This document shows, piece after piece, positions 2,546 to 53,998 of a stretch of 64,000 nucleotides of DNA. How positions within the stretch are numbered: position 1 is the first letter of the stretch; every line of letters begins with the position of its first letter. The notes beneath the pieces were generated by a model. It did no database searches, was not told the DNA's origin, and was given only the letters and a program-made list of their open reading frames with translations. Location: assembly GCA_019235415.1 (NCBI GenBank), contig JAFAKN010000131.1:15219-79218 (forward strand), read 5' to 3'. Source of the DNA: Alphaproteobacteria bacterium. GTDB lineage: Bacteria; Pseudomonadota; Alphaproteobacteria; Reyranellales; Reyranellaceae. Both the position numbers and the translations under genes were made by a program.

Positions 2546-3280
2546 ATGCGAATCGTCGCCTGGAACTGCAACATGGCGCTGGAGCGCAAGATCGAGGCCC
2601 TGCTGGCGCTCGATCCCGACATCGCGGTGATCTCCGAGTGCGCCGAACCCGGGCGTCTGCGCCTGCGCTCGAAACGCGACTGGCTGGAGAGCGACCCGGT
2701 GTGGGTCGGGCGCAATCCGCACAAGGGGCTCGCGGTCTTCACCTTCCATGGCTACGCGGCACGGCTGGCCGCGAGCTACCACCCGTCCTTGCGCTATATC
2801 GCGCCAGTGCATGTGTGCGGACGGACGTCATGCAATCTGCTCGCCGTCTGGGCACAGAACGCCAGCGCCGGCGGGATCCGCAAGCACCAGCTGGGACCGC
2901 TCCGACGGGCACTGTCGCGCTACAAGGCTTTCCTGGCCGAGGCGCCGGCCGTGGTCGCCGGCGACTTCAACAACAACACCATCTGGGACAAGCCCGGCTG
3001 GCGGATCAACCATTCGACCAAGGTGCGCATCCTCGAGGAAAGCTTCGGCCTGGTCAGCGCCTATCACACCGTGCGTGGCGAGGCGCACGGCCTGGAGCGC
3101 GAGCCCACTCTGTATTGGCGCGACCGCAGGAAGGACGGGCCGACGTACCACATCGACTACGTCTTCCTTCCCTCGCTCTGGATTGAAAAGGTGCGTGACC
3201 TTAGCATCGGCGGCTTCGAGACCTGGTGCGGCTCGGGATTGAGCGACCACGTGCCGGTGGTCGTCGATGTCGAGGTTTGA
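2546..3280 (+). CDS. Endonuclease/exonuclease/phosphatase family protein
   Basis: Motifs WNCN, SEC, GDFN, HIDY, SDH; ATG at 2546. Confidence 0.88.
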   Translation: MRIVAWNCNMALERKIEALLALDPDIAVISECAEPGRLRLRSKRDWLESDPVWVGRNPHKGLAVFTFHGYAARLAASYHPSLRYIAPVHVCGRTSCNLLAVWAQNASAGGIRKHQLGPLRRALSRYKAFLAEAPAVVAGDFNNNTIWDKPGWRINHSTKVRILEESFGLVSAYHTVRGEAHGLEREPTLYWRDRRKDGPTYHIDYVFLPSLWIEKVRDLSIGGFETWCGSGLSDHVPVVVDVEV

Positions 3281-48757: not shown

Positions 48758-49005
48758 TGCTCGGAAGCAGGCGGACGGTTTCTTTCTGGCAACCCAAGAA
48801 GCAGCTGCTCAAGCTCGCCCGCGCCCTGCGGGCCCGCGTGGAGGAGACGGCCCGGCCCGCCCTGCCGGCGCAATCGCTCGCCGTCGCCCGCGTCAGGAGC
48901 CGCATTGCCGCCGAAGGCAAGCGCAAGGCGCGCTTTTCCGAGTACTGAGCAGGCTTGATAATAGTTATTGGCGCGGCGTAGGCTGCCATTGATCCCGGAG
49001 GTCAA

Positions 49006-49266
49006 ATGGCAAGCAGCGTCGATCTTGGCCGCGAGCTGGAAAGATTCGTGGCCTCACTGGTCTCCAGCGGGAGATACAACTCCAAGAGCGAAGTGCTCCG
49101 CGAAGGACTTCGTTTGCTGCAGGAGCGCGAAAAGCGTCTTGCGGTTTTGGATGCCGCGCTGGACCAAGGGCTAGCCGCGGCAAATCTCGGCAAGCTCAAG
49201 CCAGCAGAAGAAGTGTTCGGTCGCCTCGAGGCCAAATACAGGAAGATGGCGAAGTCCAAGGCGTGA
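49006..49266 (+). CDS. ParD-like antitoxin (Arc/MetJ fold)
   Basis: LERFVASLVSSGRYNSKSEVLREGLRLLQERE. Confidence 0.88.
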   Translation: MASSVDLGRELERFVASLVSSGRYNSKSEVLREGLRLLQEREKRLAVLDAALDQGLAAANLGKLKPAEEVFGRLEAKYRKMAKSKA

Positions 49267-49568
49267 GAGTCTCTTTCACGGAGCCTGCCGAGGAAGACCT
49301 CGAGGCGATTGGCGATTGGATAGTCAGGGATAACCCCGATCGGGCCATCACATTCGTGCGCGAGCTACGCCGCTCCTGCCTCCAAATCGGTTCACGACCC
49401 CGCAGCTATCCGTTTGTCGAACATCGGCTCAATGATGGCATTCGCCGCAGAGTGCACGGAAACTATCTGATCTTTTATCGGGTAACTGACACGGTCGAGA
49501 TTCTTCGCATCCTGCCCGGTGCTCGCGACTACGGTCGCATTCTCTTCGGCGATGATGACTTAGACTAG
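49263..49568 (+). CDS. ParE/RelE family toxin
   Basis: FTEPAEEDLEAIGDWI, GNYLIFY, ILRILPGARD; GTGA overlap with the antitoxin. Confidence 0.88.
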   Translation: MRVSFTEPAEEDLEAIGDWIVRDNPDRAITFVRELRRSCLQIGSRPRSYPFVEHRLNDGIRRRVHGNYLIFYRVTDTVEILRILPGARDYGRILFGDDDLD

Positions 49569-50531
49569 CCGCGTTATCGTTTGCGAGCCGCCGCCCCACA
49601 CCGGCAGGTAGGTCATCTTGTAGCCGGCGCCGCCGGTGACGATGACGTGGATCGCATCGGGGGCGCGCGCGACGCCATCGCCGTGCTCGAACATGTAGCG
49701 CTGCACGTGGAAAAGATCCCAGCCGTCGTGCCGCACGATCTTCTCGGCCATCTCCAGCGGCAGCAGCACGACCTGCTCGCCGCGCTCGTTGCGCCGGCTC
49801 ATGCTCGACATGACGAGCGCCGCGCGCATTCCCGCGACGATCGGCGAGAGGATCGCTTCCGGCGTGGCGCCTTCGCCGTCGCCCGGCAGGACCTCGGCAG
49901 TTCCCGACACGCCCATCACGGTGACGGCGCTGGCGTCGCCAGCCAGGCCGCGCCGCGCCGTCAGGGTGGGGAAGGGGCCGTCGCTGCGCTCGGCGAAGCA
50001 GAACGTGTACTTGCCGGGCTGCCCCATGGTCGCCATGTCGCCGACCTCGGCGCGCGCGCCGCCGATGTTGCGGATGACGAGCTGCAGGGCGCGTCCGACG
50101 CAGGCGTTGGCGCGGTTGCCCGGTCCCAGGCAGTTGGTGCCGGCATTGATGGCGAGCTGGCGCGCGATCGATCCGTGCACGCACAACGCGACGCAGGCCG
50201 TGCCCGTGGTGGTGGCGACGCCCAGCAGGTTGAAGTCCGGCTCGAGCACTGCCGCGGCGGCGGTGAGCACTACCGGCAGTTCGGCCGGCGTGCAGCCGGC
50301 GATCACGCATTGGTAGGCGACGGCCTCGGCGGTGACGTCGCCGAACATCGGCGGCATGAGGCCGTGCGATTCGCTGCGGTCCGGTATCCCGACGAGCATC
50401 GCCTCGAGGCGATGCCGCGTCGGCGGCACCATTGGCAGCCCGTCCGACAGCTCGGCGTCGATCAGGGTTTTTTGCGCGGCCTCGAAGCCCGTGCCCTCGT
50501 CGACGACGGGCCAGCCGCACCACCCGCTCAT
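49560..50531 (-). CDS. Uncharacterised protein, UGSC-operon partner (paralog B)
   Basis: SDGLPMVPPT, AGC, NCLG, GQPGKYTFCFAE, IVTGGAG; start overlaps paralog A stop. Confidence 0.8.
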   Translation of the reverse strand: MSGWCGWPVVDEGTGFEAAQKTLIDAELSDGLPMVPPTRHRLEAMLVGIPDRSESHGLMPPMFGDVTAEAVAYQCVIAGCTPAELPVVLTAAAAVLEPDFNLLGVATTTGTACVALCVHGSIARQLAINAGTNCLGPGNRANACVGRALQLVIRNIGGARAEVGDMATMGQPGKYTFCFAERSDGPFPTLTARRGLAGDASAVTVMGVSGTAEVLPGDGEGATPEAILSPIVAGMRAALVMSSMSRRNERGEQVVLLPLEMAEKIVRHDGWDLFHVQRYMFEHGDGVARAPDAIHVIVTGGAGYKMTYLPVWGGGSQTITRLV

Positions 50532-51565
50532 CCCGGGATGCGGACCGCCGCGACCGTCGTTCCGCCAAAGGACGGAATGAAGGCGGAATGCTTCCCCGGA
50601 CCGCCGGCCACCGTGATGTGGATGTCCTGTGGCGAAGGCGCGATCGCGAACCAGTCGCCGTCGGGCTTGTGGCCGGTGCTGATGTAGGTGTCCTGGTTTT
50701 CCTTGGAAATGCGCGAGACGTGGACGCGCGCGCGCTTGAACAGCTCCTCGCGGATGCTGTCCAGCGTGTAGCCGTCCCGCTTCAAAGTCGCAGCATGCTC
50801 GGGCCCGACGACCACGAACATCGGCCCCTTGCCGTAGATCGTGTTGGCGCCCGGCGTCGCCATGCTGCCGGCGAAGGTCGTGAGCAGGCCATCGCCGGTC
50901 GTGCTGCCATGGTCGTTGAGATTGTGCGGCCCTTCGCCGGACATCACCGTCACCACGTTGTCGCTCGCAGCGAAGCCGCGCTGGACGTGGTAGGGCTGCC
51001 AAGGATTCTCCTCCTCGTTCTCGCCGAAGCAGAACGTGTACTTGGCGGGATTGCCCTGCGTCGAGCGGTCCATCTCGCCCGGCTTGGCACCGGCGATATT
51101 CAGAAGCATCAGCCCGAGCGCCCGACCGATCGTGGCGTTGGCCTGCCAGCCCTGGCCGAAACAGTTGGAGCCACAGTTGATGCCGAGCGCGCGGCGGATG
51201 GGTCCGCTCACCATGACCATCGGCGCGCAGGAATGCGTGGTCGCGAGCGTGCCGTGCAGGTTGTAGTCGGGGTCGAGCACGCCGCGCAGCGCGGCGGTCA
51301 CGACGGGGAAGTACTCCGGCTTGCAGCCGGCCATCACGGCGTTGGCCGCGAGGCTCTGCAAGGTGGGCACGATCTGGCGCGGCGGCACCGGCGCGAACGG
51401 CCGGTTGTCGCCGCGCACCGTGTCGACGAACTTCGCCACCTTGTCCTCGGTGGGCACGTAGAGCGGCATGCCGTCGCTCCAGCCCTGCTCGACGGCGAAG
51501 TCGTTGAACGCCTCGACATCGAGATCGGCGATCTCGATGACCTCCTGCTCGGCGATGTCCTTCAT
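50528..51565 (-). CDS. Uncharacterised protein, UGSC-operon partner (paralog A)
   Basis: SDGMPLYVPT, AGC, NCFG, GNPAKYTFCFGE, VAGGPG; ATG overlaps the selenoprotein stop. Confidence 0.82.
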   Translation of the reverse strand: MKDIAEQEVIEIADLDVEAFNDFAVEQGWSDGMPLYVPTEDKVAKFVDTVRGDNRPFAPVPPRQIVPTLQSLAANAVMAGCKPEYFPVVTAALRGVLDPDYNLHGTLATTHSCAPMVMVSGPIRRALGINCGSNCFGQGWQANATIGRALGLMLLNIAGAKPGEMDRSTQGNPAKYTFCFGENEEENPWQPYHVQRGFAASDNVVTVMSGEGPHNLNDHGSTTGDGLLTTFAGSMATPGANTIYGKGPMFVVVGPEHAATLKRDGYTLDSIREELFKRARVHVSRISKENQDTYISTGHKPDGDWFAIAPSPQDIHITVAGGPGKHSAFIPSFGGTTVAAVRIPG

Positions 51566-52083
51566 TGAGTATCCGTGGCCTCGGCCAGACCCTTGGTTGC
51601 GGTTTCGATGCGTTCCCGGAGCTCGTCGGCGTTCAGCCCGCCGATCGGATGCTTCACGACGATCAGCCGCGGCTCGACCTTGCGGGCCTTCGCCTGGGCC
51701 ATCACCAGCGGCCTGAACGTCTCAGTGGCGATCACGTAAGCGGTGATGCCGCGCTTCTCGAGCTCGATGCTGTCGTGGAAACTCCACGATGAACAGCTTC
51801 CTCAATCCGCTATCGCTAAAAGCGCCCCGCGGTACTTGGCGGCGACCTCCTCGAGCAGGTCCTTGGGGGCCGGCTGGCTGGCGCTGTTCTTGGCCAGGAA
51901 CTCGATGTTCTCGACCGGCCGGAAGGCGCCCAGCTTGCTGCGGATGCCGGCAAGCAGCTCGCGCGCGTTGGGCTTGGAATTGGACACCAGGGCAATGGCG
52001 TCGGTCCTCCAGTTGACCGGCTTCAGCGCGACCTTCTCGGCCGTGGTGGCCGAGAGACCGAACGTCGGATTGACGATGCGCAT
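51562..52083 (-). CDS. UGSC-family selenoprotein (173 aa; TGA at 51802-51804 read as Sec94)
   Basis: ORF continues in frame for 79 codons after the TGA (AIAD-U-GSCSSWSFHDSIELEKRGI...HPIGGL) to a stop overlapping the next ATG; SD GAGGAGG; SECIS-like hairpin follows. Confidence 0.85.
51769..51797 (-). promoter_or_regulatory. Putative bacterial SECIS element
   Basis: GCTG-TTCA-TCGTGGA-[GTT]-TCCACGA-CAGC; apical loop starts with G, 19 nt after the TGA. Confidence 0.7.
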
Positions 52084-52113
52084 GCACGTTCCTCCTCAAC
52101 TCTTGCCGAGGGC

Positions 52114-52983
52114 CTAGCTCTCGCCGAGCGCCTTGGCGATGGCGCGCCCGGCGCGCTCGCCGTCGGCGATCGCTTCGGCCAACGATTGCCGGGCGCCCAA
52201 CCGGATGTCGCCCACGGCGAACGCCGAAGCGACGGAGGTGCGGCCCTCGTCGTCGACCACGATATGCCCTGATGCGTCGCGTGCAAGCGAATCCGGCACG
52301 AATTCCGCAGCGGGAGCCCGGCCGACATAGACGAACGCGCCACTGGCCGGCAGGATCTTCCGCGCGCCATCAGTCTCCACCACGACGCTCTCCAGCCCGT
52401 TGCTGCCTTCGAGGGCCACGATGCGCCCAGCGATGCAGCGCATCCCGCCGGTCCCAGTCGGCGGCGCAGGGTCGACGACCGTGACGTCGTCGGTGAACGA
52501 CTTCAGCTCCTCCGCTTCCTGCCAGCCCCAGTTGGCGGCGCCGACGACAACGACCGGCTGGCCGGCATAGAGCGGTCCATCGCACGAGGCGCAGTGCGAG
52601 ACGCCGCGCCCTTCGTAGTCCTCCTCGCCGTCGACTCCCAGTCGTCCCTTGGCAAGGCCGCTTGCGATCACGACCGAGCGCGCCGTGTGGCGCTCGCCTT
52701 CGGCGGTTTCGACAGCCCACGGCGCGCTGCCCGAGAGCTGCGTGACTTCGCCGAAGCCGAGCTCGACGCCGGCTTCGGTCGCCGCGTCGCTGAGGCGCGC
52801 CGCGATCGTCGGTCCGTCCGCGGCGTCTTCCACATTGTGCAAGTGGGTGAGGTTGATCAGCGCCCCACCCGGCGCGAGCTTGTCGAGGCAGAGCGTGCGC
52901 AGGCCAGCTTGTGCCGCCTGCGTCGCGGCACTGAGGCCGGCCGGACCGGCACCGATGACGACGACATCGTACGAAGTTTCCAT
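52114..52983 (-). CDS. Thioredoxin reductase-like FAD oxidoreductase (atypical nicotinamide site)
   Basis: GAGPAG, GRGVSHCASCDG (CxxC), FAVGD; NADPH motif altered. Confidence 0.85.
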   Translation of the reverse strand: METSYDVVVIGAGPAGLSAATQAAQAGLRTLCLDKLAPGGALINLTHLHNVEDAADGPTIAARLSDAATEAGVELGFGEVTQLSGSAPWAVETAEGERHTARSVVIASGLAKGRLGVDGEEDYEGRGVSHCASCDGPLYAGQPVVVVGAANWGWQEAEELKSFTDDVTVVDPAPPTGTGGMRCIAGRIVALEGSNGLESVVVETDGARKILPASGAFVYVGRAPAAEFVPDSLARDASGHIVVDDEGRTSVASAFAVGDIRLGARQSLAEAIADGERAGRAIAKALGES

Positions 52984-52989
52984 CGTGCC

Positions 52990-53063
52990 ACTAATCGATC
53001 TTCCGCTACGAAGTGCAAGCGGCTTGACTCGGAACGGCCACATACCTAGTAATGCTAGGTATG
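52990..53063. promoter_or_regulatory. Back-to-back promoters and PadR-type operator
   Basis: Minus: TTGCAC-N17-ATTAGT, 6 nt before the reductase ATG. Plus: TTGACT-N17-TAGTAA(T), 7-8 nt before the padR ATG. Perfect inverted repeat CATACCTAG-TAATG-CTAGGTATG at 53041-53063. Confidence 0.65.
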
Positions 53064-53396
53064 GATGCGGAGATGCTCAAAGGTCACCTCGACGCCATCG
53101 TCCTGGCGGCGCTCGAAGCAGGTCCGGCGCACGGCTACGCGGTCATCGAGACCATCCGGGCGCGCAGCGGCCAGACGTTCGATCTGCCGGAAGGCACGAT
53201 CTATCCGGCACTGCACCGCCTGGAGCAGGCGGGGCTGCTGTCGAGCAGCTGGACGACGCCGCCCAGCGGCCGACGACGGCGCGTCTATTCCCTGACCAAG
53301 GCCGGGGCAGCAGCACTCGCCCGGCGTCGCAAGGACTGGACTCGGTTTGCGGGCGCCGTCGACAGCTTCCTCGGGGGACGCGCATGGCCGGCCTGA
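53061..53396 (+). CDS. PadR family transcriptional regulator
   Basis: LKGHLDAIVL, HGYAVI, EGTIYPALHRLE, RRRVYSLT. Confidence 0.92.
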   Translation: MDAEMLKGHLDAIVLAALEAGPAHGYAVIETIRARSGQTFDLPEGTIYPALHRLEQAGLLSSSWTTPPSGRRRRVYSLTKAGAAALARRRKDWTRFAGAVDSFLGGRAWPA

Positions 53397-53998
53397 TCGA
53401 GACCTATGTCGCCGACTTGCGCCGCGAGCTCGACTTCGACCGGCTTGCCGCTCAGCGCATCGCGAACGAGGTCGAGGACCATTTGCGCGAGTCGGCCGAG
53501 GCCGATCCAGCCTGGCCATCGCCGGACGCGGAGCGCCGGGCGATCGAGCGCTTCGGGCTCGGCCGCGAGATCGCCGCGCAATTCGCCGCCGACGCCATCG
53601 ATCGGCAGGCGCGGCGAACGTGGATGACGGTGTTGGCCTGTGTGATCGTGACGTTTGTCGCCATGCGCCTGCGCGTGATCTGGCTCGATGGCGAGACGGT
53701 CTCGGCCTTGGCGCCGTTGGTCGATCGATATGCCTTTCTCGGCGCCATCGCCGCCGCGACCGTGGGCTGGTTCGCGTTGCGCCGGTCGTTGCTGGCGCTG
53801 TCGCTCTGTCTTGTCGGCCTGGGCGCATCGATTGCCGCGGGCTTCGTGCGCGCGGACCTGTTCGCGCACGGGGCGCCGCTCGGCGTGCTGCTGACGGCAG
53901 GCGGCGAAATCCTGTTGGTCGGCTTGCTCTGCGTCCATCTCGTCGGCTTCGGCCGGCAGCTGCGGCGCACGGCGGCATTACGGGGAGCTCTGCGATGA
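53384..53998 (+). CDS. PadR-associated membrane protein
   Basis: N-terminal YV..L...I..EVEDHL.E...AIERFG motif followed by about 4 TM segments. Confidence 0.72.
   Translation: MAGLIETYVADLRRELDFDRLAAQRIANEVEDHLRESAEADPAWPSPDAERRAIERFGLGREIAAQFAADAIDRQARRTWMTVLACVIVTFVAMRLRVIWLDGETVSALAPLVDRYAFLGAIAAATVGWFALRRSLLALSLCLVGLGASIAAGFVRADLFAHGAPLGVLLTAGGEILLVGLLCVHLVGFGRQLRRTAALRGALR

Follow-up and report, generated by a model that had tools for sequence, protein, structure and literature searches.

A probable UGSC-family selenoprotein gene and its candidate redox partners in a conserved gene cluster of Reyranellaceae

We analysed a 64,000-nucleotide stretch of DNA, hereafter the window, from an Alphaproteobacteria bacterium of the family Reyranellaceae (GenBank assembly GCA_019235415.1, contig JAFAKN010000131.1, positions 15,219 to 79,218 of the forward strand). 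On its minus strand lie four co-oriented genes, which encode, in order, a thioredoxin reductase-like (TrxR-like) flavoprotein, a member of the UGSC family, and two related proteins designated UnkA and UnkB. The second of these genes contains an in-frame TGA at the first position of a U-G-S-C motif, where U stands for selenocysteine (Sec), followed directly by a hairpin with the geometry of a bacterial selenocysteine insertion sequence (SECIS). The features of this gene, numbered from the first letter of the window, are as follows.

51562-52083, minus strand: UGSC-family selenoprotein gene, 173 amino acids, Sec at residue 94 in the motif U94-G-S-C97, assigned from translation, from matches to hidden Markov models (HMMs), and from the same architecture in 81 Reyranellaceae genes (window included)

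51802-51804, minus strand: in-frame UGA, almost certainly read as selenocysteine; TGA in 95/95 loci, Cys aligned with it in Cys forms, no variant in independent metagenome contigs

51769-51797, minus strand: strongly inferred bacterial SECIS element, with a lower stem GCUG/CAGC, a 7-bp upper stem (51789..51783/51779..51773), and a GUU loop (51782..51780)

52090-52097, minus strand: Shine-Dalgarno sequence GAGGAGGA, 6 nt before the ATG at 52083, by direct reading of the sequence

Read from the ATG at 52083, the minus-strand frame comprises 93 codons, a TGA (51804..51802), 79 sense codons, and a final TGA (51564..51562); with the internal TGA read through, it encodes 173 residues in which the motif stands in the context GALLAIAD-[TGA]-GSCSSWSFHDS. 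A first-pass annotation, made from the letters of the window alone, had described an open reading frame (ORF) call of 93 residues stopping at 51802, a frame that stays open for 79 more codons, and a 173-residue product, all of which translation reproduced. It had also described a final TGA overlapping the next ATG, and the two indeed share the letters ATGA with the gene at 51565..50528. The rare AT-rich codons that it listed around the site (CTT TTA GCG ATA GCG GAT TGA GGA AGC TGT TCA) are all present. The G+C content of the window is 66.7%, and G+C at third codon positions (GC3) of the UGSC gene is 0.90 before the TGA and 0.88 after it; the tail is thus as coding-like as the head, which agrees with the earlier description of normal codon usage past the TGA.

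Profile searches place the product in a catalogued family. With Cys placed at the UGA, the 173-residue protein matches the Pfam profile PF24696 ("UGSC family") with E = 3.7e-36 and 125.3 bits, where the cut-off is 25, and residues 3-166 align with profile positions 2-166 of 172, a full-domain match above the gathering threshold. NCBIfam contributes a single match, to NF041046, "UGSC family (seleno)protein", with E = 3.3e-33 and profile positions 4-143 of 147 covered. Across 38 UGSC family members, D93, U/C94, G95, and C97 are invariant or nearly so. UGSC-containing proteins were reported in 2007 as selenoproteins of unknown function in Hyphomonas neptunium and in metagenomes (PMC1976440), and a 2026 review lists them, with model NF041046, as still uncharacterised (PMC13188914); the first-pass description of a predicted selenoprotein family of unknown function is in accord with both papers and with PMC2398784.

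A scan of species-representative genomes yielded 80 loci, nearly all labelled Reyranella, Reyranellaceae, Enhydrobacter, or unclassified Alphaproteobacteria/Rhodospirillales, whose UGSC proteins are 76-91% identical to that of the window. With the window these make 81 Reyranellaceae genes, and 14 further loci, which include Crenalkalicoccus roseus, Desertibaculum subflavum, and a gammaproteobacterial metagenome-assembled genome (MAG), the remainder being metagenome contigs, bring the set to 95. The TGA is kept in every one of the 95 (window included), spanning Reyranellaceae, Acetobacteraceae, Desertibaculum, the gammaproteobacterial MAG, and metagenome lineages, and in all 81 Reyranellaceae genes 78-80 codons separate it from the true stop. 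After the TGA, 66 of the 106 variable sites are third codon positions, and synonymous and nonsynonymous codon differences from the window stand at 1468:541, compared with 1447:1070 before the TGA; this third-position bias and these counts indicate translation of the tail in this frame and a tighter constraint on it than on the head. The public sequencing runs that contain the window sequence are soil and rhizosphere metagenomes, and contigs from two independent runs of this kind span the site with zero differing letters at 51802-51804. Taken with the profile matches, these data show that 52083..51562 on the minus strand is a member of the UGSC selenoprotein family, that the UGA at codon 94 is conserved, and that the next 79 codons are translated in frame.

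An exhaustive, profile-free search with the 79-residue tail revealed dozens of full-length relatives of ~175-215 residues that carry GDCGSC(S/T)(S/T)W, with a Cys aligned to the TGA. The closest Cys form examined at the DNA level, P0046 (locus L091), has a TGC codon at the site, so that the check for homologs with Cys at this position, which the first-pass annotation had proposed, supports its reading. The exchange of Sec and Cys at the redox Cys of a CxxC-type motif is a classic pattern. Within a collection of 5.8 billion proteins, most relatives are fragments of 93-104 residues with A(I/L)(A/G)D as their exact C-terminus, the tail being called as separate ORFs of 45-46 residues, as expected from the earlier remark that standard pipelines would split or truncate this gene. 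Two full-length entries, P0001 and P0002, show Gly or Trp where Sec is expected. The DNA that underlies P0002 (Trp; locus L092, 352-1005) reads TGA, and the gene call crossed two TGAs, the caller having used an alternative genetic code. Among the other in-frame TGA candidates in the window with coding signal on both sides, none has a Cys-containing redox motif beside the TGA, and at least three of them (31045, 12101, and 62970) are adjacent genes that share a frame. The internal UGA of the UGSC gene is almost certainly decoded as selenocysteine.

We note separately that Gly or Trp entries such as P0001 and P0002 can pass for non-Cys homologs. In one metagenome run (X3), moreover, the assembler word depth rises from ~5-27 to 50-70 exactly over the invariant hairpin (51764-51807), where many short contigs end. 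This jump fits a k-mer common to many co-occurring Reyranellaceae strains, and such a shared hairpin k-mer may explain the fragmentation of assemblies at the UGSC gene.

The hairpin that follows the UGA has the form that the first-pass annotation had given it, namely a 7-bp stem TCGTGGA/TCCACGA and a GTT loop 19 nt from the TGA. In the RNA, UCGUGGA (51789..51783) pairs with UCCACGA (51779..51773); the upper stem begins 12 nt after the UGA, 19 nt separate the UGA from the GUU loop, and the minimum free energy (MFE) of the 37 nt following the UGA is -15.2 kcal/mol. The fold of a 71-nt segment has a z-score of -2.39, and 3 of 200 shuffled sequences fold equally well. The published bacterial SECIS (bSECIS) model specifies a loop of 3-9 nt, a stem of 4-16 bp, a G in the first two loop positions, a UGA-loop spacing of 16-37 nt, and an MFE of -7.5 kcal/mol or lower (PMC13188914), and the window hairpin lies within all of these limits. 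It resembles the consensus of that model in its small G-U-first loop, 7-bp upper stem, 19-nt spacing, MFE well below -7.5 kcal/mol, and position inside the coding sequence; it differs in that its loop is of minimum size (3 nt) and that its sequence is unusually invariant across lineages, with 26 distinct 42-mers among the 95 loci.

To this geometry is added a pattern of synonymous-site conservation. In 9-codon windows over the 81 Reyranellaceae genes, mean synonymous-codon entropy is 0.11 bit at codons 97-105, which form the hairpin, and ~0.4-1.4 bit elsewhere. The hairpin codons TCA, TCG, AGT, TTC, CAC, and GAC are fixed or nearly fixed while neighbouring codons vary, and the rare TCA and AGT are fixed in 80-81 of the 81 genes, contrary to a GC3 near 0.88. 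The upper stem is paired in all 26 distinct 42-mers (95 loci), the sole change being G:C to G:U; the GUU loop is constant throughout. In the Cys form P0046/L091 the peptide differs (SSYCFQD), and nothing comparable to the hairpin is present. On sequence grounds, the invariance of synonymous sites supports a constraint on the hairpin at the RNA level, and from all of this we strongly infer that the hairpin acts as a bacterial SECIS element. As such it would recruit SelB-GTP-Sec-tRNA(Sec) during translation, so that Sec would be inserted at the UGA in place of termination.

The codons immediately before the UGA (51805-51813, minus strand) are frozen as well, with GAT directly before the UGA in 81/81 genes and, two codons before that, ATA in 43/46, at a GC3 near 0.88. 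Such freezing suggests that codon context influences Sec insertion or that these codons pair with sequence downstream.

The Sec trait is defined by SelD, SelA, and SelB in Peng et al. 2016 (PMC5029168), whose Table S2 counts Reyranella massiliensis 521 among the Sec-utilizing organisms, with 10 selenoproteins; the UGSC ortholog of R. massiliensis is among our loci (L023, 88% identity). A tRNA scan of the window and 57 related loci revealed tRNA-Sec only in the C. roseus locus (L094; SJDM01000038.1, 1-9317), and a local tblastn search of the window and all loci with the C. roseus SelA, SelB, and Ndh-SelD proteins gave zero matches outside it. The order of genes in L094 is selA, selB, tRNA-SeC (3173-3268, anticodon tca), TrxR-like, UGSC with its TGA, UnkA, UnkB, and an Ndh-SelD fusion of 741 residues (Pyr_redox_2+AIRS+AIRS_C), and its UGSC gene has the same hairpin. 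In C. roseus, then, the entire Sec machinery flanks a single UGSC selenoprotein operon.

The genes around the UGSC gene in the window are the following.

52114-53043, minus strand: TrxR-like disulfide oxidoreductase dependent on flavin adenine dinucleotide (FAD) and NAD(P)H, 309 amino acids, CASC motif (Pfam Pyr_redox_2, 7.8e-33; TIGR01292, 3e-55)

50528-51565, minus strand: UnkA, 345 amino acids, of a large unannotated family ("Unknown_1" domain); its start overlaps the UGSC stop (ATGA)

49560-50531, minus strand: UnkB, 323 amino acids, an UnkA paralog (31% identity); its start overlaps the UnkA stop (ATGA)

53052-53396, plus strand: PadR-family regulator, divergent (TIGR03433, 1.3e-28), followed by a HAAS-domain membrane protein (HAAS, 2.1e-6), the pair extending to ~54000

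The best NCBIfam match of the TrxR-like protein (53043..52114), TIGR01292 thioredoxin-disulfide reductase, scores 187 bits against an equivalog cut-off of 343, and by this measure the gene is probably a TrxB-like paralog and not the housekeeping enzyme. It lies directly upstream of UGSC in 80/80 Reyranellaceae loci and also in L094 and in the Desertibaculum locus (L095). The four-gene order is kept in 80/80 Reyranellaceae loci as far as contigs reach and is found again in Desertibaculum and Crenalkalicoccus (L094, L095), and in distant lineages (metagenome contigs and the gammaproteobacterial MAG) UGSC is likewise followed by 2-3 Unk paralogs.

Homologs of UnkA number more than 7000, and every one is annotated as hypothetical. 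UnkA has no match in Pfam or NCBIfam, a relaxed Pfam scan of its alignment also gave none, and a sequence profile search of the PDB returned nothing significant for either UGSC or UnkA. UnkA is tied to UGSC by gene fusion: proteins of 485-564 residues contain a CG(S/N)C domain together with an Unk domain, and in one of them, P0049, the C-terminal domain shares 41% identity with UnkA (E = 2e-81). A "UGSC/Unknown_1 fusion" was noted in PMC2398784, and the CG(S/N)C-Unk proteins are evidently these fusions. When UnkA, UnkB, further paralogs, and the fusions are compared, a single Cys proves invariant, Cys81, which stands in an A-G-C-x-P context just before a helix. We considered the three Cys of UnkA as ligands of an Fe-S cluster and rejected this, as only Cys81 is conserved in the fusions and paralogs.

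To examine the fold of the UGSC protein, we used an AlphaFold2 (AF2) model of the full-length homolog P0001 (87% identical), built with an alignment of 38 family members. The model has a predicted local distance difference test score (pLDDT) of 93.2 and consists of five beta-alpha units, with U-G-S-C at the end of strand 3 and start of helix 3. Its best Foldseek matches in the PDB are flavodoxin-like (WrbA, flavodiiron flavodoxin domains, and lumazine synthase), with template modelling (TM) scores of 0.4-0.55, and no thioredoxin-fold protein occurs among the top 50. A thioredoxin fold is recognised by a mixed sheet with CxxC at the beta1-alpha1 junction; in the UGSC model the motif instead follows strand 3. 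The literature view of a "likely Trx-like fold" (PMC2398784), that is, thioredoxin (Trx)-like, is therefore not supported by the structural neighbours of the model, and the UGSC fold is predicted to be flavodoxin/Rossmann-like. A relaxed Pfam scan of the UGSC alignment gave only a marginal match to PF09338 Gly_reductase (2 of 38 members, E = 0.068), which we regard as a lead only.

The N-terminal peptide MRIVNP(S/T)FG (52057-52083, minus strand; residues 1-9) is nearly invariant in distant lineages, yet it is unstructured in the model, with a pLDDT of 67-73. This segment could be a docking site for a partner protein.

Conserved gene order, translational coupling through ATGA overlaps, and the gene fusions together point to a dedicated electron relay, NAD(P)H to TrxR-like to UGSC to UnkA/UnkB. 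In this scheme NAD(P)H would reduce the TrxR-like flavoprotein at its CASC motif, and the flavoprotein, which we propose to be the reductase of the UGSC protein, would in turn reduce the U-x-x-C motif of UGSC, the middle carrier. In the modelled structure, U94 and C97 at the strand 3/helix 3 junction would form a selenenylsulfide/selenol-thiol redox pair. UGSC would then reduce the UnkA/UnkB complex at Cys81, which would be re-reduced, or freed from a covalent intermediate, in each turnover. The arrangement resembles the relays from NADPH through thioredoxin reductase and thioredoxin to a client (e.g., Trx-dependent reductases and the glycine/proline reductase selenoproteins), since a TrxB-like CASC flavoprotein lies directly upstream of a small U/CxxC protein and client-like proteins with a single invariant Cys follow the carrier. 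On the other hand, it differs from them in that the carrier is predicted to be flavodoxin/Rossmann-like, the flavoprotein falls far below the TrxB cut-off, and the clients are unannotated and have no fold match.

Several readings of the TGA other than Sec have to be weighed. Were it a nonsense mutation in a pseudogene, or a sequencing or assembly error, only the 93-residue fragment or nothing would be made, and it is true that gene callers stop at the TGA and that most database entries are fragments of 93-104 residues. However, 95/95 loci, drawn from many species and assemblies, share this TGA; purifying selection acts on the frame that follows it; contigs of independent metagenome runs have the same letters there; and the Cys forms are contiguous proteins. 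Together these dispose of the pseudogene, sequencing-error, and two-gene readings, which we consider practically negligible. The UGA might instead be read through without Sec, either by near-cognate suppression (Trp, Cys, or Arg) stimulated by the hairpin or because UGA is reassigned, a reading favoured by the apparent lack of Sec machinery in the window and by the Trp or Gly that some pipelines assigned to the codon in homologs. Genome-wide reassignment is excluded because the UGSC gene and UnkA both end at TGA, as do other genes of the window, and the Trp of P0002 is an alternative-code gene call over a TGA; furthermore, the position aligns with the redox Cys of a CxxC-type motif, the hairpin conforms to the SECIS model of the SelB type, Sec use has been published for the genus, and one ortholog is embedded in a sel gene cluster. 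Read-through without Sec is accordingly very improbable. To the same small degree we credit the view that the hairpin is a by-product of the peptide SSWSFHDS, or another mRNA element such as a pause or stability signal, with Sec inserted through another signal. Such a by-product would agree with the invariance of the peptide SSWSFHDS in all Sec forms, with the finding of no compensatory double base-pair change in the hairpin among the 95 loci, and with an Rfam search that returned no SECIS or other meaningful family, either at the gathering threshold on the whole window or at E <= 10 on 51700-51850; against it, the synonymous positions of six- and twofold codons (TCA, TCG, AGT, TTC, CAC, and GAC) are frozen while their neighbours vary freely, the only change seen (G:C to G:U) keeps pairing, the geometry is exactly that of the bSECIS model, and the Cys form, with SSYCFQD, has no such hairpin. 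The invariant peptide, the lack of a compensatory double change, and the negative Rfam search also count against the selenoprotein reading, and so do three others: the NF041046 score of 114.8 bits lies below the curated equivalog cut-off of 125, and the gene is therefore filed under the Pfam and literature UGSC family and not as an NCBIfam equivalog; none of selA, selB, selC, and selD is present in the 64-kb window, nor in the 20-kb flanks of 80 relatives, and the Sec trait of the source organism is for this reason deduced from its relatives; and the literature searched on the family yielded no experimental incorporation of selenium for any UGSC member. With both sides considered, it is in our view highly probable that the gene truly encodes a UGSC selenoprotein and carries a functional SECIS.

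The role of the protein is a separate question, and here UGSC could be, as has been suggested in the literature, a thioredoxin-fold, general thiol oxidoreductase with many substrates and not a dedicated partner of UnkA/UnkB. The UxxC motif speaks for such an enzyme, but the confidently predicted AF2 model (pLDDT 93.2) is flavodoxin-like with no thioredoxin fold in its top 50 matches, and UGSC stands in tight synteny with Unk paralogs in distant lineages and is fused to them in some organisms; we consider the general oxidoreductase unlikely. The dedicated relay has its own difficulties. In the more distant metagenome and gammaproteobacterial lineages, no TrxR-like gene adjoins UGSC, and the upstream position is taken by a short-chain dehydrogenase or by other genes. 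Neither a fold nor a cofactor site can be recognised in UnkA: a Foldseek search of its reasonably confident model (pLDDT 82.4) against the PDB gave no fold match (best E = 8.5e-3, TM <= 0.30). The path of the electrons itself is deduced from the arrangement of the genes. We thus put the relay from NAD(P)H through the TrxR-like protein and UGSC to UnkA/UnkB at close to, or a little short of, an even chance. The matches that the UnkA search did list (class I fumarase, cyclic amide hydrolase, PrpD, and PurM-superfamily proteins including SelD at TM 0.11-0.17) were treated as noise.

Tentatively, and with somewhat more doubt than belief, we further suggest that the cluster encodes an undescribed and widespread selenium-dependent three-component reductase, in which the catalytic subunits would come from a family of more than 7000 members without annotation or PDB relative and the carrier would be flavodoxin/Rossmann-like. 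The placement of the sel genes in C. roseus might then hint that this system is the chief reason for which such bacteria retain the Sec machinery, or that it has a role in selenium metabolism itself.

Among predicted selenoprotein families in aquatic metagenomes, UGSC ranks with the most abundant, and almost two decades after its discovery it has still been given no function. The window gene is an ordinary ortholog of this catalogued family, and the selenoprotein call is already known. It shares with the family as described by Zhang and Gladyshev (PF24696, NF041046; first found in Hyphomonas neptunium and ocean metagenomes) the U-G-S-C motif, a length of ~170 residues, a whole-protein HMM match, and a SECIS directly after the UGA, and among its relatives, as in the family, Sec forms far outnumber Cys forms. 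Nothing essential sets it apart: it is a soil/rhizosphere Reyranellaceae ortholog that scores 10 bits under the NF041046 cut-off. The call matters chiefly for annotation, as the gene is split or truncated by gene callers and mistranslated with Trp or Gly in some databases. In the UGSC literature consulted we did not find described the TrxR-like/UGSC/UnkA/UnkB cluster, its embedding in a sel cluster, the prediction of a non-thioredoxin fold, or the size and anonymity of the Unk family. The linkage to a TrxR-like gene, the linkage and fusion to Unk genes, and the placement inside one sel cluster provide a concrete, testable hypothesis for UGSC function, and cultivable hosts of the cluster include Reyranella massiliensis, R. 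soli, and Enhydrobacter aerosaccus.

A promoter and terminator scan of 49000-53500 gave nothing above shuffle expectation. In about half of the 80 loci a divergently oriented PadR gene stands near -1.55 to -1.6 kb relative to the TGA, and the PadR protein may regulate the UGSC cluster. At the other end, on the plus strand at 49006-49568, a ParD-like antitoxin gene (86 amino acids, PF03693, 8.6e-13) is followed by an overlapping gene for a RelE/ParE-like toxin (101 amino acids, TIGR02385, 5.8e-4), and these two genes are transcribed towards the end of the UGSC cluster.

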